Part shown: positions 23,602 to 50,032 of the stretch, in pieces
Layout: each line of letters starts with the position of its first letter
How positions within the stretch are numbered: the stretch's first letter is position 1
Virus record (IMG/VR): IMGVR_UViG_3300028840_006907
Span: 192,001-256,000 of that record
Length of the DNA stretch: 64,000 bases
DNA from: a virus
Reading direction: 5' to 3' (one strand)
The notes under the pieces: generated by a model
Database searches by the model: none
Told to the model about the DNA's origin: nothing
Seen by the model: only the letters and a program-made list of their open reading frames with translations
Position numbers and translations under genes: made by a program

Positions 23602-24954
23602 TTGACATTTGATGACGTGGTAGGCCAAGAAGGGACTGTTCTAGTCTTAAAAAAAGCTGTAAGCAATGATAATTATGGTTCAGCCTATCTATTCTCTGGG
23701 CCTTCAGGTGTTGGGAAAACTACAATAGGTAGAATCTTTTCAAATACGATCCTTTGTGAATCACCTATAAATAATAGCCCATGTCTTAAATGTGAATCTT
23801 GTTTATTATTTAGAAAAGAGCAACATTTTAGTTATAGAGAATTAGATTCTGCCTCTTTTGGTGGTAAAGAAGATATGGTAAAATTACGTGATGATGCCTC
23901 TTCTCTGGGAGTATCAAAGAAAAAGATCATTCTTCTTGATGAGAGCCATGATATCAGTAAAGCTGGTCAGGATTCCTTATTAAAACAAATAGAACAGTGT
24001 CCTGAGCATTTAATTTATTTGTTCTGTACGACTGATCCTGATAAAATGAATGAAACTTTACGAAACAGATGTACTCCATTTCATTTTACCCGTATAGAAC
24101 CACCTCTTATAAAACAAAGATTAAAAGTAATTTGTGAAAAAGAAGGCTTTACATATCAGGAAGAAGTATTGGATATTATATCGGAGAGATCTGAAGGTCA
24201 CGTACGCAATGCCATAAATCTATTGGAGTTAGTCGCTTATCTTGGTGAAATTACTATTGAGAATTTAGACAAGATCTCCAAAGATTTTGAAGAAGATATC
24301 TTTACTATTTTATCTAATTTAGGTATTGATCTTAATAAAGTTATCAGTACTTATAGAAAGATTTCTTCCTATTTATCGGTATTTGAATTCTATAACTCAT
24401 TTCTATCTTTAGTAAATGATTCGGTAAAATTATTATACGGCTATGAAGATTTTCTTGAAAAAAGAAAAAAATTATTAATGAAATTGAAAACCATTCATGG
24501 TCAGAGTCTCCCTGAGTTCCTGAATTACCTTATTACACGGGATAAATATGTGGAAAAGGTTGGAATTGAGAGTGATTTGTTAATTTTACATTACAAATAT
24601 AGTGCTGATAGTTTTGTACCTCGGATACAACAAAAACCCTTAAAAAACCCACAAATAACTAATCCTAAAAATAAAGATGAAGAACTTAAACCTCCGTCTT
24701 TCACTGTGGATGAACTCACAAAAATGGGCGTTGAAAAACGTAGTGAGTTTCTTCGTAATCAGCGAAAAAATCATAAATTGGAGGATAAGGAAGAATCATT
24801 AGTTGTGCCAGCAGAATGGCCCTTACCAAAAGAAGAGAGACCGGGGAATACTGACAATGGGGAGGTTGAGTTAACACCTCACGAATTCTCTTTGAGATTG
24901 GTAGGAGGACGAGGTGGCAAAAAGCAACAAATGGCTGATTCTCGAACTGAATGA
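23602..24954 (+). CDS. dnaX: DNA polymerase III tau/gamma-like clamp-loader ATPase
   Basis: GPSGVGKTT P-loop, zinc module CLKCESC, SRC-type region; conserved N-terminal YRP.TFDDVVGQE begins in-frame upstream of 23602, so true start may be ATT at 23575 after RBS AAGGGAG. Confidence 0.8.
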   Translation: MTFDDVVGQEGTVLVLKKAVSNDNYGSAYLFSGPSGVGKTTIGRIFSNTILCESPINNSPCLKCESCLLFRKEQHFSYRELDSASFGGKEDMVKLRDDASSLGVSKKKIILLDESHDISKAGQDSLLKQIEQCPEHLIYLFCTTDPDKMNETLRNRCTPFHFTRIEPPLIKQRLKVICEKEGFTYQEEVLDIISERSEGHVRNAINLLELVAYLGEITIENLDKISKDFEEDIFTILSNLGIDLNKVISTYRKISSYLSVFEFYNSFLSLVNDSVKLLYGYEDFLEKRKKLLMKLKTIHGQSLPEFLNYLITRDKYVEKVGIESDLLILHYKYSADSFVPRIQQKPLKNPQITNPKNKDEELKPPSFTVDELTKMGVEKRSEFLRNQRKNHKLEDKEESLVVPAEWPLPKEERPGNTDNGEVELTPHEFSLRLVGGRGGKKQQMADSRTE

Positions 24955-25458: not shown

Positions 25459-26373
25459 ATGGATAATTTAATAGTAGATGGTTTTGGTATAGTTTATAAG
25501 TCACATTATGCTTTTAATACCCTATTAACTTCTACAGGGATATTATCTGGAAGTGTTTATGGTTTTTTGATTAGTATGAGAACTATTAAAAATAGTTATC
25601 CTCATTGTCATCTGACGATTGCTTGGGATAATGATGCTACAAGAAGAAAAGAAGCCTTTAGCAGTTATAAAAGTAATCGTAAAAAAATAGGTCTCTTTGA
25701 ACAAATAGAAGATCTCAAAGAAATTTTTTCAAATTTAAATGTCTCTCAGGCCGAATATGCGGGAGAAGAAGCTGATGATGTTATAGCATCTCTGACAAAG
25801 AAATACACTGAAAATTTAGTCTATATTTACAGTTCAGATAAAGATATGTTTCAATTGGTTGAAAATGGGAAAGTTATTGCCATAAGACCTAAAAAAGGCA
25901 AAAATCCTGAGAGATATTATGATGAAGAGAAAGTCAAAGAAGAATTTGAGGTCAGTCCGAAAAATTTTGCTTGTTTTCAATGTTTTCGAGGGGATTCTGT
26001 CGATGGCATCCCAGGAGTCCCACGTGTGAAATCTTCTTTACTTGCTTACCTTTCAGAAAAATACGAAACTCCAGAAAGAATCTACCAACATCTCGATGAA
26101 GAAAAATTAACTCCTTATCAAAGAAAAGCTCTTTTAGAATTTAAGGAACAAATAACAGTTAATATGCAGTTAGTGACATTACGTACAGATTTAGTATTAA
26201 ATGTGATTGATGGTGAACCTAAACCTTCTGCATTATTACCTTTTTTAGATAAGTATGAAATACGTTCAATTAACCCAGATACATATGCAAGAGTCTTTGC
26301 AGATATCCCTTCTTTTAATGCAAGAAAAGCTCCTAGTTTTGAGAGCTATTCTTTATTTGATGATGAGGAGTAA
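25459..26373 (+). CDS. 5'-3' exonuclease / flap endonuclease (PIN-like)
   Basis: N-terminal LIVDGFGIVYKSHYAF and acidic clusters typical of Pol I-type 5' nuclease; helix-hairpin-helix-like DGIPGV. Confidence 0.7.
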   Translation: MDNLIVDGFGIVYKSHYAFNTLLTSTGILSGSVYGFLISMRTIKNSYPHCHLTIAWDNDATRRKEAFSSYKSNRKKIGLFEQIEDLKEIFSNLNVSQAEYAGEEADDVIASLTKKYTENLVYIYSSDKDMFQLVENGKVIAIRPKKGKNPERYYDEEKVKEEFEVSPKNFACFQCFRGDSVDGIPGVPRVKSSLLAYLSEKYETPERIYQHLDEEKLTPYQRKALLEFKEQITVNMQLVTLRTDLVLNVIDGEPKPSALLPFLDKYEIRSINPDTYARVFADIPSFNARKAPSFESYSLFDDEE

Positions 26374-26377
26374 AGTT

Positions 26378-27016
26378 ATGAAAAATAGTTCTTTTTTAAG
26401 ACGGATGGATTGTGTTGAGATGGATGCTCGTTTTTCTAATGAGAATGCCATTAAATACAGTGAACTGAAAAGTTCTTTAATAACTTACGAAGAAATCAGA
26501 CCTTTTTTATATCGTTTACCTCCTCGGGAAATAGATCTCATAGAGCTTTATTATAATGAACGTAAAAATCAAAAGGATATTGCAAAGATATTCGGTGTTA
26601 CTCAAGGAGCTATTTCTAGCCGGTTGACTCGGGCAAAGAAACGATTGAGATTTTTAAAGGATCTTCCTAAAATTAGTGACGAGGAAATTGATGGTTGTTT
26701 GTGTAAATATTTTGACCGATTAGAGTTAGAGATAATTAAATTTATGATGTTGACTACTTGTCAGAGTAAAACAGCTCAATTGATAAATAAAAAGTTCAAT
26801 CTTGTTGATGCAAAGAAAAAAATGACACAGGTCAAAGTCCGTCACAGATTCGAAAAATGTTTATGCAGATTAAAAGAAGAGATGAAAAAAGATCCTGAGA
26901 TAAAGAAGTACCATAAGTTGCTCGAATATATAAAGAAGAACCTTTATAAATTGCATGAAGTGAAGTTACCTCATTTTGATCGGGGTACTCATGCGGTTTT
27001 TTCAATTATTGTGTAA
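26378..27016 (+). CDS. sigma-70-family-like factor (region 4 HTH)
   Basis: QKDIAKIFGVTQGAISSRLTRAKKRLR resembles sigma region 4.2; start chosen at ATG 26378 after FEN stop. Confidence 0.5.
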   Translation: MKNSSFLRRMDCVEMDARFSNENAIKYSELKSSLITYEEIRPFLYRLPPREIDLIELYYNERKNQKDIAKIFGVTQGAISSRLTRAKKRLRFLKDLPKISDEEIDGCLCKYFDRLELEIIKFMMLTTCQSKTAQLINKKFNLVDAKKKMTQVKVRHRFEKCLCRLKEEMKKDPEIKKYHKLLEYIKKNLYKLHEVKLPHFDRGTHAVFSIIV

Positions 27017-29570: not shown

Positions 29571-30155
29571 ATGTTAGGGGGCAATCTCTTGAATAATAAG
29601 CATTCCGACTATGTTTTCCACGAACCCGGTGGAAGTTCACTTCCTGGTTCACCTGATGCGAATCCCTATGTCTTTTACCCACCGGATGAGATTCGACGAT
29701 TATTAGAATCAGAGAAAGATCCTGATGAATTGGCTAAAATGAAGAGTGCCTTACGACAATGGGAACGGATTTATGTCTATCCTGGTTACCCATATAGGTT
29801 GGCAAAAGCATTAAGATTTATAGCAGCCAAGCTTCAGAAGATAGCTGAACGAACTCCAGTCCCACAGAACAAACCTTATTACAATGATAGTCAAGTTCCA
29901 GAAGGTTTTGAAGAGATTATGGATTCTCTTCGCAGTCCTCACGATAACCAGAATCAGATCTGGGATGATTATCACAGACAAGGCGAACGACCTAAAGTTG
30001 ATATAGATACAGGAAAAGGTGACTTTCTATCTCCATCGGAACCACCTATTGGTGATACCGTAAAGGAAAGAGGAGATGGTCCAGATCCGGAAGGAATGGA
30101 GATTCCTCAACCGGGTACTGGTGGTGATCCTGATTCATGGTTTCAAGGAATTTAA
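29571..30155 (+). CDS. hypothetical Pro/Asp-rich protein
   Basis: 194-aa ORF; start uncertain. Confidence 0.4.
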   Translation: MLGGNLLNNKHSDYVFHEPGGSSLPGSPDANPYVFYPPDEIRRLLESEKDPDELAKMKSALRQWERIYVYPGYPYRLAKALRFIAAKLQKIAERTPVPQNKPYYNDSQVPEGFEEIMDSLRSPHDNQNQIWDDYHRQGERPKVDIDTGKGDFLSPSEPPIGDTVKERGDGPDPEGMEIPQPGTGGDPDSWFQGI

Positions 30156-30168
30156 TGGGAGGATATAT

Positions 30169-30459
30169 ATGGATGATATTTATAAAGAGCTAATTAAAAA
30201 TGTAGGTTCTTTAAAAAATGCTGATGAAGTTGATGTATGCGGTATGGACGATTTTATTGAGCCTAAGAAAGCCGAATCTCGATTACCTGACAAGGTAAAA
30301 GTGGCCTCACTAGGTGACCTTTCAGAATTTTTCCGAATTGCTAACAACACTTTAGTCCATAAAGCTGAAAAGGATTTATGGCGTATCAGTGAAGATGAGA
30401 ATGGTTGTGTCATTGAGAGACTTTTTAATCCTGATACTAAAGAACCTATTAGAGTATAA
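30169..30459 (+). CDS. hypothetical protein
   Basis: RBS GGGAGG before ATG 30169 (track ORF starts earlier at 30076). Confidence 0.45.
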   Translation: MDDIYKELIKNVGSLKNADEVDVCGMDDFIEPKKAESRLPDKVKVASLGDLSEFFRIANNTLVHKAEKDLWRISEDENGCVIERLFNPDTKEPIRV

Positions 30460-30468
30460 AGGAGTCAA

Positions 30469-31014
30469 GTGATGAGAAAACGGCTTACTGATGATGCGGG
30501 AAGATTTAAATCGGCTGGTATGAGAAGAGAAATACCAGAGGATTTTAAATATAACCCTAAGAAGTTGAAACATTTAAAACACATTCTTCATAATGTTACG
30601 ATAGCTCTAGGCACTTTAACATCCTCTTTAAATGAGTTTTCTAAATTAAAGGGGCCTGAAGTAAGTCCCGATGGACTTCTTGGAGGAATAGGTTATATCA
30701 TTCCCTTAAAAGACATAAAAGAGACCATTAATTCTACGATTCGCGGTTTAAGTGATGTAGCAGATTGTCTAGCTGATGAGTTGACAAATCCTAAATGGAA
30801 TTCGAAAGAAGACAAAGAGGTAAAAGAACTCATCAAGGAAAAAGAGGAAGTTCAGGAAAAAGTTGATGAAGAGGTAAATCCTGAGGATCTGGTAACCGTT
30901 GAAGAGTTAGAAGAAGATATAGATAAAAAAGAAACAGTTGATAAACAGGCTAATACCACTGTTTTGGAATCGGCTGTTAAAAATTCCCTCGTAAAATTTT
31001 TTGAAACAGCATAA
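30469..31014 (+). CDS. hypothetical protein with acidic C-terminal half
   Basis: RBS AAGGAG upstream; 181 aa. Confidence 0.5.
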   Translation: MMRKRLTDDAGRFKSAGMRREIPEDFKYNPKKLKHLKHILHNVTIALGTLTSSLNEFSKLKGPEVSPDGLLGGIGYIIPLKDIKETINSTIRGLSDVADCLADELTNPKWNSKEDKEVKELIKEKEEVQEKVDEEVNPEDLVTVEELEEDIDKKETVDKQANTTVLESAVKNSLVKFFETA

Positions 31015-31026
31015 AGGAGATCTAAT

Positions 31027-32595
31027 ATGTTAGGTGAACTTAATCAAGATATAATGGGTTGTGAAATTGGAACAAACCCAAAGTATCCTCCGATTAATAA
31101 TCTCGATTACTTAACGGTGGATACAAGAACTTATGATAATTATCCTTCTGATAATAATCCAGTACGGATACAGCCTAAACTCGCTGATTTATGGAATCAC
31201 AATAAAAACAATTGTGGTATAAATTTGATCCCCAATCAGACGGTTCAGTCTTTGGGTTTAAGAAGTGCCGATGAAAATATGAGTGAAGCAGTAGCTAATT
31301 TTTGCTGTGAGACCAAAAAAGCAATGATGATGGGTTACACAGGGAAAGAATTAGCAAAATATCTTCGTGCACGTTTTGATAAAGAAACTATTGAAGCCGC
31401 GAAAGAGGAAATGGTTAAACTTTCTGAAGAGCAAGGTTTAATGGGAAATGTTTATATTGATGCATCCGCTTTTATTTCTGCAAAAGAAGCCGAGCAATTT
31501 TTAACAATGCATCGAAATCGTCTTGCCCAGGACATTGTTATAGAAGGAGCTACCGTAGATCCGAATGTAGTGGCTTATTTGGCTAATAAGTTTCATAAAA
31601 ATGTAGTTGAAAAAATTTCATATGATGAAAAACTTTACAGAAAATATAAAGCTTATCTCGTGGATGCAAATAAAATTCCTGTTGATTTTGTAATAGATTC
31701 TAAAGAATCTCTTAGATCGGCTTTTTTATCTGAACCTGTAGAAGAAGTTGTAAAGAAAGCTAAAGCTGAAAAATCGGAACCTTTATCTAAGGAAAAAGTT
31801 GCAGAAGAATTAGTAAATAGAGGTGATAAGAATGATACAGCTCATAAACTTGCAACTGCTGATATTACTTTTCGTGAAGTTCGTCCTATCATAGAATTTA
31901 CCAGAGAACAACTCTCAAAAGGAAAAACAGGAAATAATTTAAAGGAGATATTACGTGGAAAGTATGCTTCAGTAGATTTGAACAAAGCAGCCAAATATAT
32001 AGCTGTTGTAATTTCCAGTGATATTACCTCAGAGCGTATCGATAAATTAGTGGAATCAGAAAAGATCTCTAAAAAAGTTGCTAGTGCATTAAAAGAAATT
32101 ATAAAAACTTACCCATTAAAAGTTGAAGCTTATAAAGAAGACAAATCTGAAAAACAGATTGGTGTTCCAGGTCATTTCCATTCTTTAAATAATTTGAGAC
32201 AGGATTCACATTTATCGGAATATCATCAGGCTTCAGTAGAATCTCTTCGTAAAGGTAAAAGCCATGAAGATGTTAAGGAAGAACTTCTTAAAAAGTTGTC
32301 AAATGACGAAGCTGATAAAGTCCTTTTGGATGCTGTAAAGGCATTTAATGAATCTCCCGCTGGAACCAAAGCGAATGCTCCAGTGATTCCTGAAAAGAAA
32401 AAATTGGTTGCCGATATTGAACCTCCAAAAGTATTACCAGACAAAGAAACGATCATTCCACAGACTCAGGAGTTTATGGATTTTTATAAAGGTTCAAATG
32501 AGCTTATAGTCGATATCGATGGTAAATCTGCCAACTCAAATTTATTGGAGATAGAGAATCTGGATAGTAAGTCCGGTATTGATAATGCATTCTAG
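31027..32595 (+). CDS. hypothetical protein (522 aa; possible virion/packaging-module protein)
   Basis: RBS AAGGAG before ATG; position in packaging module. Confidence 0.5.
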   Translation: MLGELNQDIMGCEIGTNPKYPPINNLDYLTVDTRTYDNYPSDNNPVRIQPKLADLWNHNKNNCGINLIPNQTVQSLGLRSADENMSEAVANFCCETKKAMMMGYTGKELAKYLRARFDKETIEAAKEEMVKLSEEQGLMGNVYIDASAFISAKEAEQFLTMHRNRLAQDIVIEGATVDPNVVAYLANKFHKNVVEKISYDEKLYRKYKAYLVDANKIPVDFVIDSKESLRSAFLSEPVEEVVKKAKAEKSEPLSKEKVAEELVNRGDKNDTAHKLATADITFREVRPIIEFTREQLSKGKTGNNLKEILRGKYASVDLNKAAKYIAVVISSDITSERIDKLVESEKISKKVASALKEIIKTYPLKVEAYKEDKSEKQIGVPGHFHSLNNLRQDSHLSEYHQASVESLRKGKSHEDVKEELLKKLSNDEADKVLLDAVKAFNESPAGTKANAPVIPEKKKLVADIEPPKVLPDKETIIPQTQEFMDFYKGSNELIVDIDGKSANSNLLEIENLDSKSGIDNAF

Positions 32596-32604
32596 GAGCT
32601 GTCT

Positions 32605-33141
32605 ATGGCTGATACTGAGAGGAAATTAGAGAATCTTGATTTGGATTCTGCAATTAAGAATCCTTCTCAACCTATTTCTGCAAATTTAGTGGAAGTAACT
32701 GTTGCTCAACCTGAGGAATTAGCTGATGATGAAATTTGTCTTGCGATTAAAGAAGATGAATTGCCTGACACTGTTTTAAAAGCCGTTATTTTAGGTCTTG
32801 CTGAAGAGCAGTCTTCATTAAAGACTTTACGTCAAAAGAAACAGAATGAAGGTAAGGATTCTTCTTATATCTCAATGAAACGTGGTATGTTGTTGAAATA
32901 CATGTCTGAGACATTAATTCAACGGCAATCTTTAACTGGGTATACAGGAGAATTGGATTTAAGAGGTCCAAGATTCCGTGAAGTATTCAAAATGCTTTTG
33001 AATATTATTTCCGATACTTTTGATGAAATAAAAGTACCTCCAGAATATAAAGAGATGTTTTTTCATGCGTTATCACGAAATTTGGAGGGTTGGGAAGAGA
33101 GAGCTGAGAAGCTAGTAAAGAAGATGACACCTAAGGTATAA
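32605..33141 (+). CDS. hypothetical protein (position suggests small terminase subunit)
   Basis: 178-aa ORF immediately upstream of large terminase; no motif support. Confidence 0.35.
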   Translation: MADTERKLENLDLDSAIKNPSQPISANLVEVTVAQPEELADDEICLAIKEDELPDTVLKAVILGLAEEQSSLKTLRQKKQNEGKDSSYISMKRGMLLKYMSETLIQRQSLTGYTGELDLRGPRFREVFKMLLNIISDTFDEIKVPPEYKEMFFHALSRNLEGWEERAEKLVKKMTPKV

Positions 33142-33143
33142 GA

Positions 33144-35036
33144 ATGAGTCTTTCTGAACTTTGTACAAATTATATAGGTTCTAATAGGTTAAAAGATGAG
33201 ACTGAGCGAAATATCATAGAATTTGCTGAGGCTCAATGGGGCCTAGGTATGGGTACTATGCCTGGTATCCCGCCTTTATTTCCTGTACAAAAGTTCATTT
33301 TTAAGACTTATTATAATATTCCTCTTGATAACGGTGATGACCGAATAATAATTGTTAAAGACAAGTTTAATGAGAAGGTCAGATACCGATTTAATGAGAA
33401 AGAATATTTAAATTTCTTGTTCAATGAAGGTCGTATAAATATCAAGGAGGTCACTGGAGACCCTAAAGATTCCAGAACTGACCTGGTATTAGTCATAGGA
33501 AGAAGAGGTCTAAAAACAAGTAGTATAGCGGTTTTAGTAAGTTTTGAAACTTACAAACTTCTTAAAAAAGTAAGTCCTCATGAGTATTATGGTATTATGC
33601 CTGATGATGAGATTCGGGTATCATGTGTTGCTACCAATAAAGAACAGGCTGGTGAACTCTTTCGAAGAATCAGTGGCCATCTAGAGCGTTCTGAATATTT
33701 TAAAAAATACCGTGAAAAACCCACATTGAGTTACATGAAATTAAGTACTCAACGTGATATTGAGGAGTACGGTCCTGGTAATAGATCCTCACTTCGTATT
33801 GTTGCCTCTCCCTGTACCGGTAGAGGACTTAGAAGTTATAATAATATCATAGCTGTTTTAGATGAGATGGCTCATTTCTTTGAGTCTGATACATCCACAG
33901 ATAAGTCAGATAAAGTGATTTATGATTCTGTTACTCCTTCTGTTGCAAAATTTGTCACTCCTGAAGGTGATCTTCATGGGAGAGTTATAAGTATATCATC
34001 TCCAAATGATCGATCAGGTAAATTCTATGAACTCTATGAGCGTTCCATGGAAGCTGATTGTGACAATATATTAATGATTCAGGCTCCTACCTGGGAAGTA
34101 GACTATACTCTTTCACCTAAATACCTAAGAGCGAAATATCTAGAAAATGCTGTTTCATATATGAGCGAGTTTGGTGCTGAGTTCTCTGATAGAGTGTCTG
34201 CTTGGATAGATAATGAGCAAATGTTAAGGATTAACATTATTCCAGGTTTGAAGTTAAAAAAGATAAGCTATGAGCGTACGCCTCATTTTATGGGTATTGA
34301 CGTTGGTCTTAAACAGGATGGAACTGCTATTGCAATTTGTCATATAGTAAAAGAAATGATTGGTGATATTGAAAGAAATTTGATTGAATTGGACTGCATA
34401 GATGCACGTTATGCAAAAGATGAGGATAAAGAATATTTCCATCCGGATGAAATAGCGGATTGGATAGCTACTTATAATGAGAAGTTTTACATTGTAAAAG
34501 GTATTATGGACCAATATTATGGTTTAGCTATGATACCTAAACTTCATGAAAAAGGTATAAAACAGATTAATGCAGCCCATTTCAGTCGGGATTTTAATTC
34601 AAAAGTATATCAAAATTTAATGTCGAAAATGCTCGATGTCTCATTAAGAATTCCAGAAGGTGATGAACATTTAGTTGATGGTAAAAAAACAAAGGATCTT
34701 GATTTAGTTACAGAAATGTTAAAGTTACGGGCTGTTACTCATTCAAAATATTTAATTACAGTAAAGGCTCCAGATGTAAAGAATGCTCATGATGATAGAT
34801 CTGATGCTTTTGCTCGTGCAGTCTATTTGGCTACTGAATATATGGCTTCTGGAGGTGGTATAGTAAAAAATAATCGTATTGAGAGTACTGGTAAAAACGC
34901 TTCTTATCGCCAGTATTATATGAAACAAAAAAGAAATGCGATGTATACAATGCGGCCTTCATCTGCCCTTCAAATGGAGATTTCAAGAAACAGACATTTT
35001 AATTCATTAATGAGCCAGCTCGGAACGAGGAGGTAA
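33144..35036 (+). CDS. terminase large subunit
   Basis: ATPase Walker A-like VIGRRGLKTS, Walker B IIAVLDEMAHF; C-terminal RNase-H-like nuclease motifs GIDVGLKQDGTAIA and AHDDRSDAFARA. Confidence 0.7.
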   Translation: MSLSELCTNYIGSNRLKDETERNIIEFAEAQWGLGMGTMPGIPPLFPVQKFIFKTYYNIPLDNGDDRIIIVKDKFNEKVRYRFNEKEYLNFLFNEGRINIKEVTGDPKDSRTDLVLVIGRRGLKTSSIAVLVSFETYKLLKKVSPHEYYGIMPDDEIRVSCVATNKEQAGELFRRISGHLERSEYFKKYREKPTLSYMKLSTQRDIEEYGPGNRSSLRIVASPCTGRGLRSYNNIIAVLDEMAHFFESDTSTDKSDKVIYDSVTPSVAKFVTPEGDLHGRVISISSPNDRSGKFYELYERSMEADCDNILMIQAPTWEVDYTLSPKYLRAKYLENAVSYMSEFGAEFSDRVSAWIDNEQMLRINIIPGLKLKKISYERTPHFMGIDVGLKQDGTAIAICHIVKEMIGDIERNLIELDCIDARYAKDEDKEYFHPDEIADWIATYNEKFYIVKGIMDQYYGLAMIPKLHEKGIKQINAAHFSRDFNSKVYQNLMSKMLDVSLRIPEGDEHLVDGKKTKDLDLVTEMLKLRAVTHSKYLITVKAPDVKNAHDDRSDAFARAVYLATEYMASGGGIVKNNRIESTGKNASYRQYYMKQKRNAMYTMRPSSALQMEISRNRHFNSLMSQLGTRR

Positions 35037-35039
35037 AAA

Positions 35040-38000
35040 GTGTCGGAAGTTTATCAGGGTGATTATGCCCCTAATTTATATAATGAGGAAAAGCGTTATT
35101 ACTTATTTCAAGCACAACAGTTGACAAATCTAACTGATGCTGAACTTCGTGATTTACATAATATATCGAACACGTATGTCCGTCGTACAGTGCAAGCTCA
35201 AATTGGTGATTGTGCAATACAAGATGGTTATAAAATTGCTGAGAATACTTCGGATAAGTCTAACAATTTTCTTATAACAGGAGGAAGTGGTACTCTTGAT
35301 GATCCAGGGATGTATTATCTTAAAGGATATCGATTATTCCTTTTAGGTGATATAGCCTATAAAGATCAAACAGATACAGGTACTATTACCGATGACGGTT
35401 ATACTAAAACTATATTACCTGCTCTGACAACGCCTACTGGGGTCACCTCCACTTTAAATAGCCTTTCTTTAAGTAATCCCACTCTTATCTGTTGTGGTGA
35501 TACGAGTGCTATTGCTAACTCTTCTGATTGGGGTCGAAATTGGGTTGATAGAAATGCTATGACATCCCAAAATCTAAATGGTTCTTCTTTAGGAGACGCC
35601 TCAGTCGGTTATGCAGTTGGTAATGTGGGAGCTGTTCTTCGTACAACTGATAGTGGAAATAGTTGGATAAATATCCGAACAAGTTTACCAACTCTACCAA
35701 CAAATTATCAAAATGTTAATTTCTTTGATGCTTATTTTGTGAACTCTTCTATCGGATGGATCACGGGTCAAAGTGGTGCCATATTAAAAACAATAAATGA
35801 TGGGACTAGTTGGACTGTACAGGGATCTGGTGTCACTACTTCAGATTTAAGTGGTGTTCATGGGACTGGATTAACTGATGTGTGGGCTGTCGGTAGTAGT
35901 GGTATGGTGGTAAAAACGACTGATGGTACAACCTGGTCTCAACAAGCTAGTGGAACTCTTTTTAATTTATCAAGAGTACATGCTATTAATACATTGGTCG
36001 CTTATGCTGTTGGTAATAGCGGTACTATAATAAAAACAACGAATGGTGGTACATCTTGGTCTGCACTTACTTCTGATACTACAGAAAATCTTCGTGATGT
36101 TCATTTCACGGATTTAAATAATGGTTGGGCTGTTGGTGATAATGGTACGATTACCCGAACAGATGATGCAGGTTCAACCTGGGATTCTTCTACTATTGCC
36201 AGTGTCGATTTAAGAGCTGTTACTTTTTATGATACCACAGGATTTACTGCTGGTGGAAGTGGTGAGATTTACAGAACTCTTGATAATACAAATTGGGTGA
36301 AATATCGTACTGATTATGTTTACATTGATTTCCATCTAGCTGAGGTTTCAGGTGATGCCACCTCAGGTAGTGAATACATAGATACAAGTTTAGTGGATGC
36401 GACTGTAGGTTATCCAAGTGCCAATAGATTGAGGGTGGTCTCTGATGTAAAAGTGTCTGAAGGGTGGCCAGCTCCAGCCGATTACACCAATACTGATGCT
36501 ACCCTTCAGCATTATATCGCTCCTCTTGCGTCAATAGAGCGTTCGGTGGGTACAAGTGATATAACTTCAGCTAACATCACAGATTTAAGAACTGTTGTTC
36601 GTACTATTGGTGAGATTGATGCTGCCCTTAAAGACGGAAGTATTGGTACTTCTGCAATAGCTGATGGAGCTATTACCCCTGATAAACTTGATAGTACTGG
36701 CGATTATACAATGGGATCACTCAGTATCTTGGGAGATTCTTCTATTGCTGGTGATTTAACTATAGGCGGTATATTAGTTGTTAGTGATTATAGAACTAGC
36801 ACTATCATGGATAATCTTGTGGTACGGGGATCTGCTCAATTAGGTGATTCAACAGCTCCATATGAGGATAGTGTTAATATTTATGGTAATATTACTCAAG
36901 TATTAGATTCAACTAAAATCGCTTATGATATACAAACATCTTCAACAACTGATGCTTCTCCAATAATTAAAATTGTTTCTGATAGTACAGGTAGTGTATG
37001 GCATGTAGAAAGTAAATCTCAAACGACATCGAGTCTTTTTGATGCTACTACACAGAATATGGGGTATGATTTCCATTTAAATCATTTAGGATATGAAGGT
37101 GGCTTATTTAAATTAAGGGATGATGCAAGTAACCATACCATTACTATATCTAAGACAGCTCCAGGATTTAGAGGGTCTGTTTTAGATGTTACAAGTAATA
37201 GCAATGACCCAACAATAAATATCGTAAACAGAGCTTTATCTGATTCAACAAGTTTAAGTATTGACCAGACTCATGGGACCATGATTACTTTGAATACGTT
37301 GGGTGATGCTTCTGGTATCGATATTTATTCACAAGGCTCTGGAAGAGACCTACATATAGATCATTCAGGTACTTTAGGAATAGCTGTAGATATTACTAGT
37401 TCCAGTGCACAGGTTGCAATGAATCTTGTAAATCAGATGGGACCTGCTGTAGTAATAACTCAGAATGGTGATGATGAAGCTCTGTTGGTTTTAAATAAAG
37501 ATTCTACAACCTTAGGAAGAGCTTTAGAGATTAACCATAGAGGTAGTGATGTTGGATTAGGTGTTTATAATACTGGTACTGGAATGGGTCAGCTAATTTC
37601 ACATGTAGGTGATTCTACTCATCCTGCATTAGATATTTATGTAGCAGGGAATGAAAAAGGTCCAGCTCTTCGTATAAATAAGGCAAATGATGAAACTGGT
37701 GAAGGTATAAGAGTATGGAATCAAGGTTTTAGCGAATCCTTAAGATTAATTCAGGATAGAACCGATTCCTCAGCTACAGTACTTTTAATTGAAAGCCAGA
37801 GTATTGGTTATGATGTTAGCTCTAGTAATTGGAATATAGATAGCTCAGGTAATATTTATACCGCTGGAAGTATTACTTCTGATTCTACTGCTACTGTAAC
37901 AAGTTCTAAATTTGCTTTTGATAGTACTTATTATATGACTTCTACAGGGATGTATCTTGATAACAGTGGCTATGATTCCTCTAATCCTGCTGTAGCTGGT

Positions 38001-41000
38001 AGGGCGTTTATAGAATCAGGTTTTTTAAGAGTCAGTGACGGTACTACAGCTTCTCCAATACCTTCATGGGGTGCTACTGGTGCCACAGGAAATACTGGGG
38101 CTACAGGATCCACAGGGGCTACAGGATCAGGGACTCAAGGAACAACAGGAGTTCAAGGATCTGCCGGGGCTACTGGAGCTACTGGACCGGCTGGAACTGG
38201 TTCTACAGGAGTCCAAGGTGTCCAGGGTGAAACCGGTATTCAGGGTCTCCAAGGTGATACGGGTGTTAGTTTAGGAGCAACAGGCTTGCAAGGTATCACA
38301 GGTCTCAGGGGATTCACGGGACTGCAGGGTCAAACCGGTGTTGCTGGGGAAACCGGAGTTCAGGGAGTGCAGGGACAAACCGGAGCTTTTGGTGGCCCTC
38401 CAGGAGAAACTGGCGTGCAAGGTGTCCAAGGAAACACTGGAGTACAAGGAACTACTGGAGTTCAAGGATCAACCGGAGTTCAAGGAATTCAAGGTCAGAC
38501 CGGAATTCAGGGAATCCAAGGAAATACTGGAGTACAAGGAATTCAAGGTAATACTGGAGTACAAGGTCAAACCGGAGTAAGTGGAGAAACTGGAGTACAA
38601 GGAACTACTGGAGTTCAGGGTATTCAAGGTCAAACTGGTATAGCAGGTCAGACAGGTATAGCAGGTCAAACCGGAGTTCAAGGAATCCAGGGAATTCAAG
38701 GTCAAACAGGTGCCCAGGGTTTAACAGGAGTAGCAGGTGAGACTGGAGTCCAAGGATCTCAGGGAAATACCGGAGTTCAAGGTATCCAAGGGCATACGGG
38801 AGCTGGGATACAAGGTACTACTGGTGTTCAAGGTTTACAAGGTCAGACTGGCTCTCAAGGTACTACTGGAATTCAGGGAGAAACTGGTGTAGGTATCCAA
38901 GGTCAGACGGGTGTTGCCGGTGTTGATGGCCAAACCGGAATTCAAGGAATCCAAGGAACCACAGGAGTTCAAGGTGAAACAGGAACTCAAGGAATTCAAG
39001 GAAATACCGGAATTCAAGGAACTCAAGGAAGCACAGGAGTTCAAGGAGAAACTGGAGTTGGTGCTCAAGGAACTACTGGAGTGCAAGGAATACAAGGAAA
39101 TACTGGAGTTCAGGGAACAACCGGAGTTCAGGGAATTCAAGGTCAAACCGGTGTTCAGGGAACACAAGGAGAAACAGGTTATATAGATTCTTCCAGTGTT
39201 AATCATAACGCTCTTCTTAATTTAACTGTTGGTGATGACCATACTCAGTATGCTTTTTTAGCTGGTCGTACTGGTGGGCAAACTATAAATGGTGGTGATG
39301 CTGCTTCAGACGTTTTAACTCTTCAAAGTACTACTGATACTACAAAAGGGAACATCATTCTTAATCCTATTAGTGGGGATGTCCCTGGTAAAGTTGGTAT
39401 AGGAGTAACATCTCCGATTTATCAATTACATGTTGGAGAGATTTTAGATGGCGGTACTGTAGGTATATGTATAAATAACCAGTATACTGCAAATGGATCA
39501 GTTGATGAAACTGCTAGTTTAATATATAGATTTGGTAGGCCACTCAGTCCTCAATATAGAGTAGCAGGTCAAGTATTAGTAGGTAAGGAACAGGATTGGT
39601 GGGATTATAATAGTACTGACGCTTATATGGCTTTTCATACTACTCGTGATACAATTTCACGTGAACAGATGAGAATTAATGCTCAAGGTTATGTTGGAAT
39701 AGGTACAACAAATCCCCAAGCTAAGCTTCATGTAACGACATTTGCTCAATTTGATGAAGGCTTTTCAACTAATATCGGTATAGGTGTTACCGCTCCTCAG
39801 GCACAGTTACATGTCGGAGAGAGTGTAACTGATGGAGATGTTTCAATAATTGTGAATAACTGGTCTTGGACTGGAGGGTCTGTAGATGAGACAGCTAGTT
39901 TACAATTCCGTTTTGGGCCTCCTCCAAGTAATTATTCTGCTGGTAAAATTTCTGCTCATAAAACTTTAGATTATATGAGTTTCGATAATAGAGACTCTTA
40001 TATGACTTTTAGTGTTGTAAATAATCAATCTGAAGTTGAGCGTATGAGGATTTTAAATGATGGAAAGGTAGGTATTGGTACAACTGATCCTCAAGAAAGA
40101 CTGCATGTAATTGATAGGGGTCAATTTGATATGGGGCTACAACAACCTATTGGTATAGGTGTAACGGCTCCATTAGCTGAATTACATGTTGGTAATAGTA
40201 CTAATGGTGGTGATGTAGGCATTATTATTAATAACCAATACAATACTACTGGATCAGTTGATGAAACAGCAAGTTTAATTTATAGATTCGGTACAGTAGG
40301 AAGTGCAAATTATCGAGTAGCTGCCAGAATTTGTGCTCATAAAGAATTAGACTGGCAATCTTTTGATAATGTCGATTCAGCTTTAGCTTTTAGGACTACT
40401 CGAAATCAATCTGAAAATGAAAGAATGAGAATAACTAGTGAAGGTGATGTAGGAATTGGTACTGTCACACCTTCAGAAAAATTACATGTAGAAGGTAATA
40501 TTTATACTACTAATGGTTTTCTTGCTGGTGGGAACATCCAAATTGAAGGGGACTTTTTAGGAGGGACTGATGGTAATTCTAATTTAGGCTCTACTTCAAG
40601 AAGATTTAATAACCTTTATATGGCTTCTTCGATAAATTATAATTCTGATCTAACCTTTGATTGTACGGGTACCCATGTAACCCTTACAACTGGTGGTAAC
40701 GTAGGTATAGGAACTACAAATCCCCAAGGATTATTTCATGTTTCTGATGATACCAATGGTGGTGATGTAGGTATTGTTGTTAGTAATCGCTATATTGGTG
40801 GTGGGTCAGTTGATGAAACAGCTAGTATGATTTATCGTTTTGGCCATCCGTTAGGAGTAGCTAATAAAGTTGCAGCCAGAATAAGTGCCCATAAAGAATT
40901 AGATTGGGCAAACTCTAATAATACTGATGCTGCTTTGATTTTCTGGACTACTCGTGATGCTGTTGAACGACAACAGATGAGAATTGATAGCAATGGTTAC

Positions 41001-42053
41001 TTAGGAATCGGTATAACTAATCCTCAGGAAATATTACATGTAGATGGTAATATCGTAGGATCATCTGGTTCTAATTTAGGGTCTGCTGCATTAAGATTTT
41101 CTAATCTTTATTTGGCTTCTTCTATAAACTATAATTCTGATCTTAATTTTGATTCAACAGGAACACATGTCACTTTTACAACAGGTGGTAATGTAGGTAT
41201 AGGTACTACAGATCCGCAAGCATTATTACATGTCTTTGATAGTACTAACGGTGGTGATGTTGAAGTTATAATTACTAATGACTATTATAGTGTTAGTTCG
41301 TTGGATGAAACTACCAGTATAACTTTTCAAAATAGAGGTCACGATGGTAATAGGTATACTGCAAGTAGAATTCTTTGTGGAAAAGAAGGAGATTTTAGTA
41401 TCTCTGATAGAAAAGGTTATCTAGCTTTCCATACAGTTAATCAAAGTTCATTTGAAAGAATGCGAATTACTTATGATGGTAATGTCGGTATAGATACTAC
41501 GGCACCTTTAGATAAGCTTTCTGTCGAAGGTCAAATGTCTGTGACTCTTGCAGGTGATCGAAAATTTAAAGTAGATAGTACAGGACAAATTTATTCCGAT
41601 GCAGGTACATCAATATTTACTCCTGCTGACCTTGCTGAATGGTCAAAGGTAGAGGGGTATCTGGAAGAATATGAGTTAGGTATGGTAGTACAACAATCCT
41701 GTGTAGATTTAACCGTTAAGCTAGCTGATAGCCCTTCTGAGAGAGTATATGGTGTGGTTACAAACCGTGCCACATTTTTGGGAAGTCTTACTGGTATTGA
41801 TAAGAAAATATTAAAAGAATTAACGGATAGTGAGATAGAAGATGAGTTCAATGCCAAAAAAATAGCAATGGTAGGGCATGTTCAAGTTCTGGTAAAGGGT
41901 ACCGTTAATATAGGTCAGTCATTGACTCTTTCTGATAAGAAAGGAATAGCACGGGGAGCTACAACTTTTGAAGAAAAAGCTCTGGCTCTTGGTATTGCAA
42001 GAGAAAGTTATGATTCAACCGATATAGGACTTATTGAGGCGAGATTATTATAA
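35040..42053 (+). CDS. giant fiber-like protein (2337 aa): BNR/Asp-box propeller, collagen-like tract, tandem ~105-aa repeats
   Basis: GTG start after RBS GGAGG; repeated SxDxGxTW-like boxes (TDSGNSW, NDGTSW, TDGTTW, NGGTSW); Gly-X-Y tract about 38065-39180; six repeats containing GSVDETASLIYRFG. Confidence 0.8.
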   Translation: MSEVYQGDYAPNLYNEEKRYYLFQAQQLTNLTDAELRDLHNISNTYVRRTVQAQIGDCAIQDGYKIAENTSDKSNNFLITGGSGTLDDPGMYYLKGYRLFLLGDIAYKDQTDTGTITDDGYTKTILPALTTPTGVTSTLNSLSLSNPTLICCGDTSAIANSSDWGRNWVDRNAMTSQNLNGSSLGDASVGYAVGNVGAVLRTTDSGNSWINIRTSLPTLPTNYQNVNFFDAYFVNSSIGWITGQSGAILKTINDGTSWTVQGSGVTTSDLSGVHGTGLTDVWAVGSSGMVVKTTDGTTWSQQASGTLFNLSRVHAINTLVAYAVGNSGTIIKTTNGGTSWSALTSDTTENLRDVHFTDLNNGWAVGDNGTITRTDDAGSTWDSSTIASVDLRAVTFYDTTGFTAGGSGEIYRTLDNTNWVKYRTDYVYIDFHLAEVSGDATSGSEYIDTSLVDATVGYPSANRLRVVSDVKVSEGWPAPADYTNTDATLQHYIAPLASIERSVGTSDITSANITDLRTVVRTIGEIDAALKDGSIGTSAIADGAITPDKLDSTGDYTMGSLSILGDSSIAGDLTIGGILVVSDYRTSTIMDNLVVRGSAQLGDSTAPYEDSVNIYGNITQVLDSTKIAYDIQTSSTTDASPIIKIVSDSTGSVWHVESKSQTTSSLFDATTQNMGYDFHLNHLGYEGGLFKLRDDASNHTITISKTAPGFRGSVLDVTSNSNDPTINIVNRALSDSTSLSIDQTHGTMITLNTLGDASGIDIYSQGSGRDLHIDHSGTLGIAVDITSSSAQVAMNLVNQMGPAVVITQNGDDEALLVLNKDSTTLGRALEINHRGSDVGLGVYNTGTGMGQLISHVGDSTHPALDIYVAGNEKGPALRINKANDETGEGIRVWNQGFSESLRLIQDRTDSSATVLLIESQSIGYDVSSSNWNIDSSGNIYTAGSITSDSTATVTSSKFAFDSTYYMTSTGMYLDNSGYDSSNPAVAGRAFIESGFLRVSDGTTASPIPSWGATGATGNTGATGSTGATGSGTQGTTGVQGSAGATGATGPAGTGSTGVQGVQGETGIQGLQGDTGVSLGATGLQGITGLRGFTGLQGQTGVAGETGVQGVQGQTGAFGGPPGETGVQGVQGNTGVQGTTGVQGSTGVQGIQGQTGIQGIQGNTGVQGIQGNTGVQGQTGVSGETGVQGTTGVQGIQGQTGIAGQTGIAGQTGVQGIQGIQGQTGAQGLTGVAGETGVQGSQGNTGVQGIQGHTGAGIQGTTGVQGLQGQTGSQGTTGIQGETGVGIQGQTGVAGVDGQTGIQGIQGTTGVQGETGTQGIQGNTGIQGTQGSTGVQGETGVGAQGTTGVQGIQGNTGVQGTTGVQGIQGQTGVQGTQGETGYIDSSSVNHNALLNLTVGDDHTQYAFLAGRTGGQTINGGDAASDVLTLQSTTDTTKGNIILNPISGDVPGKVGIGVTSPIYQLHVGEILDGGTVGICINNQYTANGSVDETASLIYRFGRPLSPQYRVAGQVLVGKEQDWWDYNSTDAYMAFHTTRDTISREQMRINAQGYVGIGTTNPQAKLHVTTFAQFDEGFSTNIGIGVTAPQAQLHVGESVTDGDVSIIVNNWSWTGGSVDETASLQFRFGPPPSNYSAGKISAHKTLDYMSFDNRDSYMTFSVVNNQSEVERMRILNDGKVGIGTTDPQERLHVIDRGQFDMGLQQPIGIGVTAPLAELHVGNSTNGGDVGIIINNQYNTTGSVDETASLIYRFGTVGSANYRVAARICAHKELDWQSFDNVDSALAFRTTRNQSENERMRITSEGDVGIGTVTPSEKLHVEGNIYTTNGFLAGGNIQIEGDFLGGTDGNSNLGSTSRRFNNLYMASSINYNSDLTFDCTGTHVTLTTGGNVGIGTTNPQGLFHVSDDTNGGDVGIVVSNRYIGGGSVDETASMIYRFGHPLGVANKVAARISAHKELDWANSNNTDAALIFWTTRDAVERQQMRIDSNGYLGIGITNPQEILHVDGNIVGSSGSNLGSAALRFSNLYLASSINYNSDLNFDSTGTHVTFTTGGNVGIGTTDPQALLHVFDSTNGGDVEVIITNDYYSVSSLDETTSITFQNRGHDGNRYTASRILCGKEGDFSISDRKGYLAFHTVNQSSFERMRITYDGNVGIDTTAPLDKLSVEGQMSVTLAGDRKFKVDSTGQIYSDAGTSIFTPADLAEWSKVEGYLEEYELGMVVQQSCVDLTVKLADSPSERVYGVVTNRATFLGSLTGIDKKILKELTDSEIEDEFNAKKIAMVGHVQVLVKGTVNIGQSLTLSDKKGIARGATTFEEKALALGIARESYDSTDIGLIEARLL
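38065..39180 (+). repeat. collagen-like GXY triplet-repeat tract (9/18-bp periodic DNA repeat)
   Basis: Continuous GxQ/GxT triplets without proline, e.g. GVQGETGIQGQTG. Confidence 0.85.
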
Positions 42054-42275: not shown

Positions 42276-44027
42276 TTATGCCTTGTGAAATCGAAAACTA
42301 TTATTAAATAAATAACTAGGTTTTGACTCAACTGATCTTCCCATGTATGTTCTGGTTTTTGAGTAGCTTATATTTAAACATTTCTGAGCCCTTGTGCATG
42401 CTACGTAAAATAATCTCTCTTCCTCTTTTTTATCTACAGCAAAACTATGAGGCCATACTCCTTCTTCTACACCTACAACTAGGACTGTATTAAATTCAAG
42501 ACCTTTACTGGCATGAGCCGTTAATAACTTAACCCCATGTCCGGTATCTTCTTCCAGAAATGTACTTGCTAAAACCAGGTCCTCTATGGTTCTAAATTCT
42601 CTGATGATTTCTAAAAATGAAGTCAGCATTGTACGGTCACTATCTTTTTTAATAGTAGTTCTATAATCTGTTTTATATAAGATAGTCTCAACAGCCTCTG
42701 AAGGAGTCATGCCCTTTATTTCATTTAAGATATTTATAAGTCCTCTTATACGGGGCATTTCATAAGCCATAGTTTCTAGATAAGACCAGCCTTCTCGAAG
42801 TAAAATTTCTTTTTTCTTTGCTCCGAATCCACGAGGGGGTACATTTACGATTCGGTTTAAACTTTCTAAATCATCTCTATTCGTACTGGCTTTGAGAAAA
42901 CTCATTAAATCTTTGGGAACTCTACGCTTATAATAAGGAAGGGCACCAACAACTTTATATGGTATGTGTTTACTTGCAAAAGCTCTTTCAAAGAATAAGG
43001 ATCTTGCATTTACGCGAAACAGTATTGCGGTATTTTCGTAATCGTTGGCTCTTATAAGGGCATTGGATATTTTCTCTGCCTCGTCTTCCTGACTATTAAA
43101 TCCGGTGAAAGATATTGATCCTTGGAAAGGGTTTTTAGCAACCATCTGATTACCGTATTGAATGTATTGATTGGCATGTTTTATGATCTCTGGAGAACAT
43201 CTGTAGTTGAAACTTAAGTGACATACAGTCGGTTTATGTAATTCTATAAAATGTTTTATGTTCTCAGGATGGGCACCCCTAAATTGGTAAATGGACTGAT
43301 TAAAATCAGCCACTACAAACAATGTCTTTGAATTTTTTGTGTATAGTTTATTTATAATGTCATATTGAATTAAAGATGTATCTTGAAATTCGTCTACTAA
43401 TAGATGAGGCCATTTTTTTGAGTAAAAATCAGCGCAATCTTTATGTCCTAAACAGTCATTGGCATAAATGAGTAGGTCATCGAAATCACATGCATTATTT
43501 TTTAGAAGAATCTCTTGGTAAGTTTTATATACAAGTAAAAAATTTCCTTCATTCAGTTCTGATGTAAACTGCGAAAGTCTGAATGATTTCCTGACATTAT
43601 CGGACCCCATTGATTTGATATGGCTAATAGCCAAGACATATGTTTTGGGTTCTCCGGGCAATTCCCGAGATTTAATGATTGTTTTTACAATTGATAACTG
43701 ATCACCGTCATCATATATACTAAAATTAGGTTTTATTGGTAAATGCCGTGTAAAATTTCTGATTATCCCTACACATAAACTGTGAATTGTGCTGACTTGC
43801 ATTTTTCCAATAGAGTCACAATGTAACTTTAATCGCTCTTTCATTTCATTGGCTGCTTTATTCGTAAAAGTAATAGCACATATATTATCTGGAGAAATAC
43901 CTTGTTCCATAAGCCTTAAAATCTTGGCTATAAGACATCGGGTTTTTCCTGATCCTGCCGAGGCATTAACCATTGTAGGTGATGCAGCTTCAACGGCTCT
44001 GGTTTGTTCTGTATCTAATGATATCAT
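42276..44027 (-). CDS. UvrD/Rep/PcrA-like SF1 DNA helicase
   Basis: Motif I SAGSGKTR, motif II VDEFQDTS, motif VI TAHASKGLEFNTVLV. Confidence 0.85.
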   Translation of the reverse strand: MISLDTEQTRAVEAASPTMVNASAGSGKTRCLIAKILRLMEQGISPDNICAITFTNKAANEMKERLKLHCDSIGKMQVSTIHSLCVGIIRNFTRHLPIKPNFSIYDDGDQLSIVKTIIKSRELPGEPKTYVLAISHIKSMGSDNVRKSFRLSQFTSELNEGNFLLVYKTYQEILLKNNACDFDDLLIYANDCLGHKDCADFYSKKWPHLLVDEFQDTSLIQYDIINKLYTKNSKTLFVVADFNQSIYQFRGAHPENIKHFIELHKPTVCHLSFNYRCSPEIIKHANQYIQYGNQMVAKNPFQGSISFTGFNSQEDEAEKISNALIRANDYENTAILFRVNARSLFFERAFASKHIPYKVVGALPYYKRRVPKDLMSFLKASTNRDDLESLNRIVNVPPRGFGAKKKEILLREGWSYLETMAYEMPRIRGLINILNEIKGMTPSEAVETILYKTDYRTTIKKDSDRTMLTSFLEIIREFRTIEDLVLASTFLEEDTGHGVKLLTAHASKGLEFNTVLVVGVEEGVWPHSFAVDKKEEERLFYVACTRAQKCLNISYSKTRTYMGRSVESKPSYLFNNSFRFHKA

Positions 44028-49955: not shown

Positions 49956-50032
49956 GAGAAAATAGCTCAGTTGGTCAGAGCGCGAGATTTAGGTTCTTGA
50001 AGTCTTCGGTTCAATTCCGAATTTTCTTACCA
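49956..50032 (+). tRNA. tRNA, predicted anticodon UAG (Leu-type) with short variable loop and encoded CCA
   Basis: Cloverleaf: acceptor GAGAAAA/TTTTCTT, D arm GCTC-AGTTGGTCA-GAGC, anticodon arm CGAGA-TTTAGGT-TCTTG, 5-nt variable loop, T arm TTCGG-TTCAATT-CCGAA, A73, CCA. Confidence 0.75.

Follow-up and report, generated by a model that had tools for sequence, protein, structure and literature searches.

The 64,000-nt stretch examined here (hereafter the window), positions 192,001 to 256,000 of the IMG/VR virus record IMGVR_UViG_3300028840_006907, carries directly after the gene for the large terminase subunit (TerL) a gene encoding a protein of 2337 aa. Our analysis indicates, with a probability of about 0.72, that this product is one chain of a very long homotrimeric host-recognition fibre, carried on the virion of a contractile-tailed megaphage and most probably located at its tail or baseplate. 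The term 'fibre-like', already used in an earlier model-generated reading made from the DNA letters and their translations (the sequence-only reading), is well supported because a collagen tract, triple-beta-helix modules and a chaperone domain of the phi29 gp12 type constitute three independent signatures of trimeric fibres. Domain searches recovered these features and a beta-propeller as well. The fibre is most likely a mosaic of module types that are nearly all known from the fibres of phages and predatory bacteria and not a new kind of machine. What is new is the combination of modules, an orphan anchor with an inserted propeller, the pairing of modules of the Bdellovibrio MAT type with a G2-type chaperone, and a linkage to TerL that extends across a clade.

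The domain map is given below. It draws on profile searches, alignments and AlphaFold2 (AF2) models, the latter being of monomers only; P0122 is a relative encoded on another contig, and U1 to U5 denote the repeated modules.

35040..42053, + strand: whole fibre gene, a single open reading frame (ORF) of 2337 aa with a GTG start, as the sequence-only reading had delimited it
35040..35450, + strand: N-terminal half of the anchor domain, aa 1-137 (invariant alignment columns, AF2; most conserved part of the family)
35451..36302, + strand: seven-bladed Ycf48/BNR-like beta-propeller, aa 138-421 (Pfam, PDB, AF2, Foldseek)
36303..36716, + strand: C-terminal half of the anchor domain with a helix and a connector, aa 422-559 (AF2 strands 424-515; P0122 alignment)
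36717..38069, + strand: proximal stalk, aa 560-1010 (family-conserved, weak periodicity of ~25 residues)
38070..39185, + strand: collagen-like Gly-X-Y tract, aa 1011-1382 (372 aa; 8 runs, 7 breaks of one or two residues)
39186..39356, + strand: connector from the collagen tract to the first beta-helix module, aa 1383-1439 (sequence only)
39357..40496, + strand: modules U1, U2 and U3, aa 1440-1567, 1568-1692 and 1693-1819 (two capping-loop motifs each; repeat profile)
40497..40664, + strand: linker U3/U4, aa 1820-1875 (56 aa; contains the motif LGS..RRFNNLYMASSINYNSDL)
40665..41048, + strand: module U4, aa 1876-2003 (repeat profile)
41049..41156, + strand: linker U4/U5, aa 2004-2039 (36 aa; shorter copy of the U3/U4 linker)
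41157..41531, + strand: module U5, aa 2040-2164 (most diverged copy; presumed distal tip once matured)
41532..42050, + strand: C-terminal domain, aa 2165-2337 (173 aa; AF2, Foldseek, iterated hidden Markov model (HMM), conserved motif)
41625-41627 and 41628-41630, + strand: codons of A2196 and D2197, between which autocleavage is predicted (gp12 alignment)

Triple-beta-helix repeats

The protein contains five repeats of ~125 aa across aa 1440-2164, with pairwise identities of 38-57% and with linkers of 56 and 36 aa, and the six repeats of ~105 aa described in the sequence-only reading were rejected. Loops of the VGIGTT.P...LHV type are indeed present in every repeat, as that reading had stated, and occur twice in each, giving 10 in total. 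Four repeats carry the exact motif GSVDETAS, and the fifth has the degenerate form SSLDETTS. A profile built from the five repeats matched the Bdellovibrio fibre tip Bd2133, whose crystal structure is PDB 8ond, with E 1.5e-20, and other MAT fibre tips were also retrieved, namely 8oml (E 2.4e-11), 8ojn (1e-5), 8ol4 (1e-5) and 8on4. Given the match to the Bd2133 tip, the repeats can be assigned to the MAT-type triple-beta-helix modules. Their VGIGTT.P...L motif aligns to the capping loops of Bd2133, and the loops (V-G-I-G-T-T-x-P-x-x-x-L) are one residue longer than the printed consensus for paired capping loops, V-G-G/N-pi-x-x-P-x-x-x-L (PMC10769870). The MAT trimeric beta-helix fold has been likened to those of T5 pb1 and K1F endosialidase (PMC10769870); among solved structures, no sequence match to pb1 was obtained.

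The nearest solved relatives of the repeats are thus cell-surface fibres of a predatory bacterium, and bacterial surface proteins with sorting domains of the type IX secretion system often have Ycf48-like propellers. Both observations would suit a non-virion adhesin of the MAT kind, secreted or displayed at the cell surface by infected cells or encoded by a cellular genome. We consider this highly improbable. Neither the sequence nor the domain scans showed a signal peptide-like stretch or a sorting domain, and the gene lies in a phage contig, where it translationally abuts TerL. Furthermore, full-length relatives with the same synteny are found in viral contigs (IMG/VR). Finally, family searches dominated by the collagen tract yield phage tail fibre families; the matches of the protein to PHROG tail-fibre families are driven mostly by that tract.

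Collagen-like tract and stalk

The second signature of a trimeric fibre, a Gly-X-Y tract put at ~370 residues in the sequence-only reading, spans the 372 residues of aa 1011-1382. Its runs comprise 7-45 triplets each, and it matches Pfam Collagen (PF01391) with E 2e-47 and 159.1 bits against a gathering threshold of 27.2. The tract had been described as free of proline and is more accurately proline-poor, with 3 Pro in 372 aa (<1%), mostly V/I at X and mostly T/Q at Y; Thr occupies 51 of the 120 Y positions. It thus departs from the high imino-acid content of the characterised prophage collagens, and proline is abundant in the phage collagens that have been described (PMC3368898). In the collagen-like tail fibres of Escherichia coli O157 prophages (EPclA etc.), a collagen segment is likewise embedded in the chain and Thr/Gln are preferred at Y, whereas Pro is found at about half of the X positions (EPclP), where the window tract has V/I; the Col domain of EPclP melts at 42 C (PMC3368898). 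Proline-poor Gly-X-Y tracts also occur in relatives of the fibre and in many PHROG tail-fibre families.

The stalk preceding the collagen tract shows a lag-25 self-similarity with z = 5.2. In the AF2 model pLDDT (predicted local distance difference test) values of 60-87 were obtained for aa ~610-920 and no intrachain secondary structure was called; on this model the stalk would be expected to be complete only as an intertwined oligomer. When the stalk, the connector and the linker were searched alone, no significant match was found in Pfam, PHROG or PDB sequences.

A second giant protein rich in collagen sequence, of 3078 aa, is encoded at 54251-63487 (+) of the window. It contains five Gly-X-Y tracts with 1842 residues and 16 prolines in total, and only a 41-aa N-terminal segment lies ahead of the first tract. 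Repeated globular domains, including two 114-aa copies, are located between the tracts, and two further domain copies start with ...P(N/Q)...SHQEARLFYDSTDHSLSYY. The break motif GA[FY]GGPPGETG is common to this protein and the 2337-aa fibre. Directly upstream of it, at 51016-53643 (+), an 875-aa protein with a methyltransferase-GT2-TPR-GT9 (heptosyltransferase-like) architecture is encoded, a candidate for modifying either the Thr-rich collagens or the host surface. Threonine glycosylation is a known route to collagen stabilisation (the 'Sweet is stable' paper cited in PMC3368898). It is conceivable, though we rate it as a long shot, that the ~106-nm rod is stabilised through O-glycosylation of its Y-position threonines by phage enzymes, with the 875-aa protein as the candidate. 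If true, this would represent a virus-encoded maturation system for a bacterial-type collagen.

C-terminal chaperone-like domain

The third signature is provided by the last 173 residues, which on sequence and model evidence appear to be a divergent chaperone domain of the phi29 gp12 (Peptidase_G2) type. The sequence-only reading had called this domain unique, which does not hold. Close relatives are few, and an exhaustive profile search retrieved 930 cluster representatives at E<1e-3, of which 19 reached E<1e-30. In nearly all strong relatives the domain lies at the very C-terminus of proteins of 500-1600 aa. When searched alone, the domain gave no significant match in Pfam, PHROG or PDB sequences. 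Its AF2 model has pLDDT >90 over most of its length, and Foldseek matched it to immature phi29 gp12 (3suc, E 1.4e-4, TMq 0.50) and to the gp12 C-terminal fragment (3gqh, E 9e-4). Further matches were cement or decoration proteins of Sf11, T1, TW1 and BB1 and the base of the phi29 head fibre gp8.5. The matched cement and decoration proteins and the gp12 structures are all beta-tulip trimers. Unlike a stand-alone small cement protein (PF22758), the domain is the end of a 2337-aa chain.

An HMM built from relatives collected across the whole library matched aa 675-818 of gp12 with 36.8 bits and E 3e-13 in a two-sequence search, which corresponds to about 3e-8 when rescaled to the 177,635 distinct PDB sequences. 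The match surfaced only once the profile had been widened with these relatives. In the alignment, FTPA|DLAEW of the fibre is placed on NTWS|DFAEY of gp12, so that A2196-D2197-L-A-E2200 correspond to S691-D692-F-A-E695, and the 163-residue fragment in 3gqh starts with D692. Because A-D-x-A-E aligns with the start of the gp12 C-terminal fragment, a cleavage between A2196 and D2197 is predicted. D692 and E695 are the catalytic residues of gp12. The segment A-D-x-A-E is the most conserved of the family (its four defined positions are kept in 108, 101, 108 and 101 of 115 sequences). Among remote relatives, Pfam Peptidase_G2 (PF11962) was matched in 13 of 60, with a best E of 3e-10, and Phage_cement in 2 of 60. 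Peptidase_S74 (PF13884) was not found in the fibre protein by Pfam scans, and many of the proteins sharing the repeats do carry it.

It may also be asked whether the domain is cleaved at all. The same fibre could retain it as a distal knob that binds the receptor or clamps the trimer, as uncleaved auto-chaperones do exist, e.g., the P22 tailspike fin in the citation given by PMC4690869. Such a role would suit a domain that is well folded in the AF2 model, that has Ala and not Ser before the Asp, and whose family has diverged so far from Pfam Peptidase_G2 that it misses the threshold. However, the strongest conservation lies in A-D-x-A-E, which is hard to square with a surface knob under host-range selection. 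In addition, the domain is ~50% identical between fibres with differing shafts, and more variation would be expected of a tip that binds the receptor. Retention of the knob is therefore in our view unlikely, although it is the most plausible of the alternatives considered.

N-terminal anchor and inserted propeller

At the opposite end of the proposed fibre, the two anchor halves gave nothing significant in Pfam, PHROG or PDB sequence searches, and Foldseek searches with the whole N-terminal model were swamped by propellers, so that no anchor fold was obtained. Many positions of aa 1-44 are invariant, yet this segment is modelled by AF2 with low confidence, which would fit a segment that becomes ordered only upon meeting a partner.

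The propeller is clearly identified by several approaches. Pfam PSII_BNR (PF14870) scored 65.7 bits against a cut-off of 27, a PDB sequence search matched the Ycf48 structure 5ojp (E 4e-15), and the AF2 model (pLDDT ~90) consists of seven four-stranded blades whose top Foldseek matches are Ycf48 (E 9e-18, TMt ~0.75, range 0.71-0.76). The score of the NCBIfam Ycf48 equivalog is far under its cut-off (77 vs 326), indicating a domain that resembles Ycf48 without being its orthologue. The sequence-only reading was right in suggesting a beta-propeller, which it had extended over the N-terminal third of the protein; the domain covers only aa 138-421, i.e., ~12% of the chain. The repeated S-x-D-x-G-x-T-W Asp-box motifs on which that suggestion was based have no strict match, and seven degenerate Asp-box-like motifs, one per blade, are present instead.

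Comparison with P0122 revealed that residues 1-137 of the latter align with residues 1-135 of the window protein (38% identity) and residues 137-237 with residues 420-523 (45% identity), with nothing between the two blocks. Likewise, in two TerL-adjacent relatives (L015 and L017 in our numbering of related loci) that are devoid of the propeller, the sequence runs from ~residue 135 straight into the equivalent of residue 423. The propeller is thus an insertion into the anchor. In a tblastn search of the N-terminal 1010 aa against cultured phages, the propeller was the only part matched. Similar propellers are found in baseplate wedge proteins of cyanophages and in annotated tail fibres. The wedge initiators of S-CAM9 and S-SSM7, which include the top BFVD match, show 36% identity over 139 aa; in these proteins the propeller alone matches the window fibre and the remainder is unrelated.

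Gene family and exchange of distal ends

The N-terminal ~1000 aa are shared with 24 metagenomic homologues at 45-78% identity. Beyond this region the homologues have 0-230 Gly-X-Y residues followed by several unrelated tip types, and none of the 24 contains the capping-loop repeats or the G2-type domain. In two relatives the protein ends near residue 1050-1140 and the next gene encodes a separate collagen protein. These stand-alone collagens have 1269 aa with 612 Gly-X-Y residues (L008, 11573-15382) and 245 aa with 153 (L007, 11177-11914). This arrangement points to gene fusion or fission at the boundary between stalk and collagen, and the window gene accordingly looks as if a proximal anchor protein had been fused to a complete distal fibre.

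P0122 (1641 aa; L006 8001-12926) is a paralogous fibre encoded on a 466-kb contig, similar in length to the 469,617-bp contig of the window. It has the anchor without propeller together with capping-loop modules and ends in the same G2-type domain. Downstream of its gene lie a tail sheath gene (L006 14369-17068) at a distance of 1.4 kb and, at ~7 kb, a gene that weakly matches PhageMin_Tail. The sheath was identified by tblastn through its match to the annotated sheath of Tunturiibacter phage Tunturi_5 (33% identity over 94%); a search of the sheath-like protein against the PDB gave no match. Among the hints that a contractile tail is where the anchor docks, this context is the strongest available.

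Gene context

The features surrounding the fibre gene in the window are as follows.

29571-33141, + strand: four unknown ORFs (194, 181, 522 and 178 aa), also present in L001, L003, L007, L008, L011-L013 and L016
33144..35036, + strand: TerL, 630 aa, with a TAA stop at 35034-35036, ending 3 nt before the fibre GTG
35027-35033, + strand: Shine-Dalgarno sequence GAGGAGG, 6 nt before the GTG and within the end of the TerL gene
9373-11297, 23602-24954 and 25459-27016, and 2245-4524 and 42276-44027 on the - strand: genes of the replication module
12003-16085, + strand: ribonucleotide reductase large subunit, split by a LAGLIDADG intein (Pfam Intein_splicing, LAGLIDADG_3, Hom_end)
49956-50032, + strand: single tRNA-Leu (anticodon TAG), in the gap separating a block of - strand genes from the + strand block of glycosyltransferase and collagen genes

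The GTG is a credible start codon, with the Shine-Dalgarno sequence 6 nt upstream and residue 1 lining up with M1 in the 24 homologues. The 3-nt gap suggests that TerL and the fibre gene are co-transcribed and translationally coupled. A promoter and terminator scan was uninformative, with fewer promoter-like sites than in shuffled sequences and no terminator between the two genes.

TerL was identified by matches to three PHROG TerL families (17415, 9 and 2699; E 1e-12) and to the annotated TerL of Tunturi_5 (tblastn E 1e-51), while a sequence search against the PDB gave no match. The position of the fibre gene directly after TerL, as the sequence-only reading had it, is retained in 12 of 12 related loci, where identities are 39-59% for the fibre and 49-71% for TerL. 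That reading had also called this an atypical place for a giant fibre, which is true, although the position is conserved in the clade and lost in more distant relatives. As a general megaphage trait the adjacency was rejected, being absent from Tunturi_5 (308 kb) and LR745208.1 (485 kb); it is a trait of one phage clade. The four unknown ORFs precede TerL wherever the available sequence suffices. They gave no PHROG, Pfam or NCBIfam match, and for the 522- and 178-aa ORFs both single-sequence and profile searches of the PDB were empty, so that neither could be shown to be the portal or the small terminase subunit; the four may nevertheless include one of these.

The replication module around the fibre gene comprises three clamp-loader-like genes, a 5'-3' exonuclease, a sigma-factor-like gene and RecD2-like and UvrD-like helicases. 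The window sequence corresponds to the NCBI contig JAEORW010000001.1 (assembly GCA_016840655.1; 469,617 bp), which carries TerL and phage-type replication genes. The G+C content of the window is low (0.30-0.37) except in the collagen stretches, which are rich in Gly codons. At the DNA level, a megablast search of the region against 50,697 phage records gave no match in cultured phages. A scan of GTDB genomes retrieved nothing beyond a 4-kb binned contig and a single match confined to the propeller.

Points against a tail or baseplate fibre

Several observations weigh against the assignment to a host-recognition fibre of the tail. The gene is located in a packaging and replication neighbourhood and not in a tail module, and in the 64-kb window no other structural gene was recognised besides the second collagen giant. 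The anchor domain matches no characterised virion protein in Pfam, PHROG, PDB and tblastn searches, the last against cultured phages. The collagen tract, with <1% proline and lacking hydroxyproline, may form a helix of no more than marginal stability. As for the C-terminal domain, its best single Foldseek match is a capsid cement protein, that of Pam3 (8hdt_G, E 5e-5). The window domain and 9 close relatives have no PF11962 match even at E<=10, and a direct hhalign comparison of the C-terminal alignment with phi29 gp12 gave a probability of 0.6%; the link to gp12 is one of transitive homology and fold.

Some of these points would be accommodated if the protein were a fibre of the head or neck, produced along with the packaging proteins. 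The post-TerL position in all 12 loci, with the 3-nt gap seen here, would be explained, and the cement protein at the top of the Foldseek matches, the scores of other decoration proteins and of the gp8.5 base, and the Phage_cement matches in 2 of 60 remote relatives all fit such a location. On the other hand, HMM homology and A-D-x-A-E tie the domain to the gp12 chaperone and not to cement proteins. Moreover, the beta-tulip base of gp8.5 is N-terminal (6qyy), whereas here the domain is C-terminal and follows a beta-helix, as in gp12. The family varies at its C-terminal end, and a variable end would be expected to face the host. Finally, a protein with the same anchor (P0122) adjoins a tail sheath gene, and more distant relatives have no TerL adjacency. 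We thus regard a head or neck location as improbable, less so than a cell-surface adhesin, and favour the tail or baseplate.

Proposed architecture and assembly

A tail or baseplate fibre could be built as follows. The anchor (aa 1-137 and 422-559) would dock the fibre on the virion, and the three propellers near the base would form an accessory platform binding glycans or another virion protein. A beta-structured stalk (aa 560-1010) and the collagen rod (aa 1011-1382) would provide reach, and the five triple-beta-helix modules would constitute a rigid distal shaft and tip, the latter being the putative site of receptor binding. The length of the fibre is estimated at about 150-160 nm, of which about 106 nm are attributed to the collagen tract (at 0.286 nm/residue), about 28 nm to the five modules (scaled from the 6-nm, 135-aa domain of Bd3182; PMC10769870) and perhaps 20 nm to the stalk.

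Folding would begin at the C-terminus, where the last ~173 aa may form a beta-tulip chaperone like D4 of gp12, a documented autochaperone for interdigitated beta-helices (bioRxiv 10.1101/216911; PMC4690869). This domain would put the three chains in register, allowing the five beta-helix modules to form, after which the collagen rod and the stalk would zip up. The chaperone domain would then probably be autocleaved at A2196|D2197, leaving U5 and about 30 residues as the tip. T5 pb1 binds its receptor at the equivalent place, just before the cleavage site (PMC4690869), and by analogy U5 is presumed to become the distal tip after maturation.

Comparison with known systems

The MAT fibres of Bdellovibrio bacteriovorus (Bd2133, 8ond, and Bd3182; Caulton et al., 2024, PMC10769870) have a homologous trimeric beta-helix with paired capping loops and are likewise mosaics with swappable ends. 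However, MAT proteins are located on the surface of the predator cell and end in an S74 chaperone or a beta-sandwich tip, whereas the window fibre is phage-encoded, has a G2-type end and arranges five modules in series, in addition to a collagen tract and a propeller-bearing anchor.

In the phi29 pre-neck appendage gp12 (3suc, 3gqh; PF11962), as in the window fibre, a C-terminal beta-tulip follows an intertwined beta-helix and a D-F/L-A-E motif is found where the C-terminal fragment of gp12 starts. The beta-helix domains of gp12 have been described as an enzyme complex digesting a host cell-wall structure (bioRxiv 10.1101/216911). In contrast to the window fibre, gp12 is an 854-aa tailspike with neither collagen nor propeller, and sequence similarity between the two is detectable only through intermediate sequences. 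The predicted released fragment has 141 aa, compared to 163 aa in gp12, and the residue before the Asp is Ala instead of Ser.

T5 pb1 follows the same logic, its long thin proximal part, proposed to have a collagen fold, being followed by a distal triple beta-helix and by a C-terminal chaperone that is released once folding is complete (PMC4690869). It differs in that it has 1396 aa, its chaperone is of the S74 Ser-Lys type and no propeller has been described.

Implications for host recognition

Receptor-binding fibres set the host range of phages, and the hosts of uncultivated megaphages are usually unknown. Our findings leave the current view of how such fibres work unchanged. They widen the range of known module combinations, as MAT-type modules of the Bdellovibrio kind occur here with a G2-type chaperone instead of the usual S74-type one. 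Additionally, they provide a domain map of the fibre, a predicted end of the mature chain and, in the conserved and readily recognised TerL-adjacent N-terminal module, a marker for the host-range gene in this clade.

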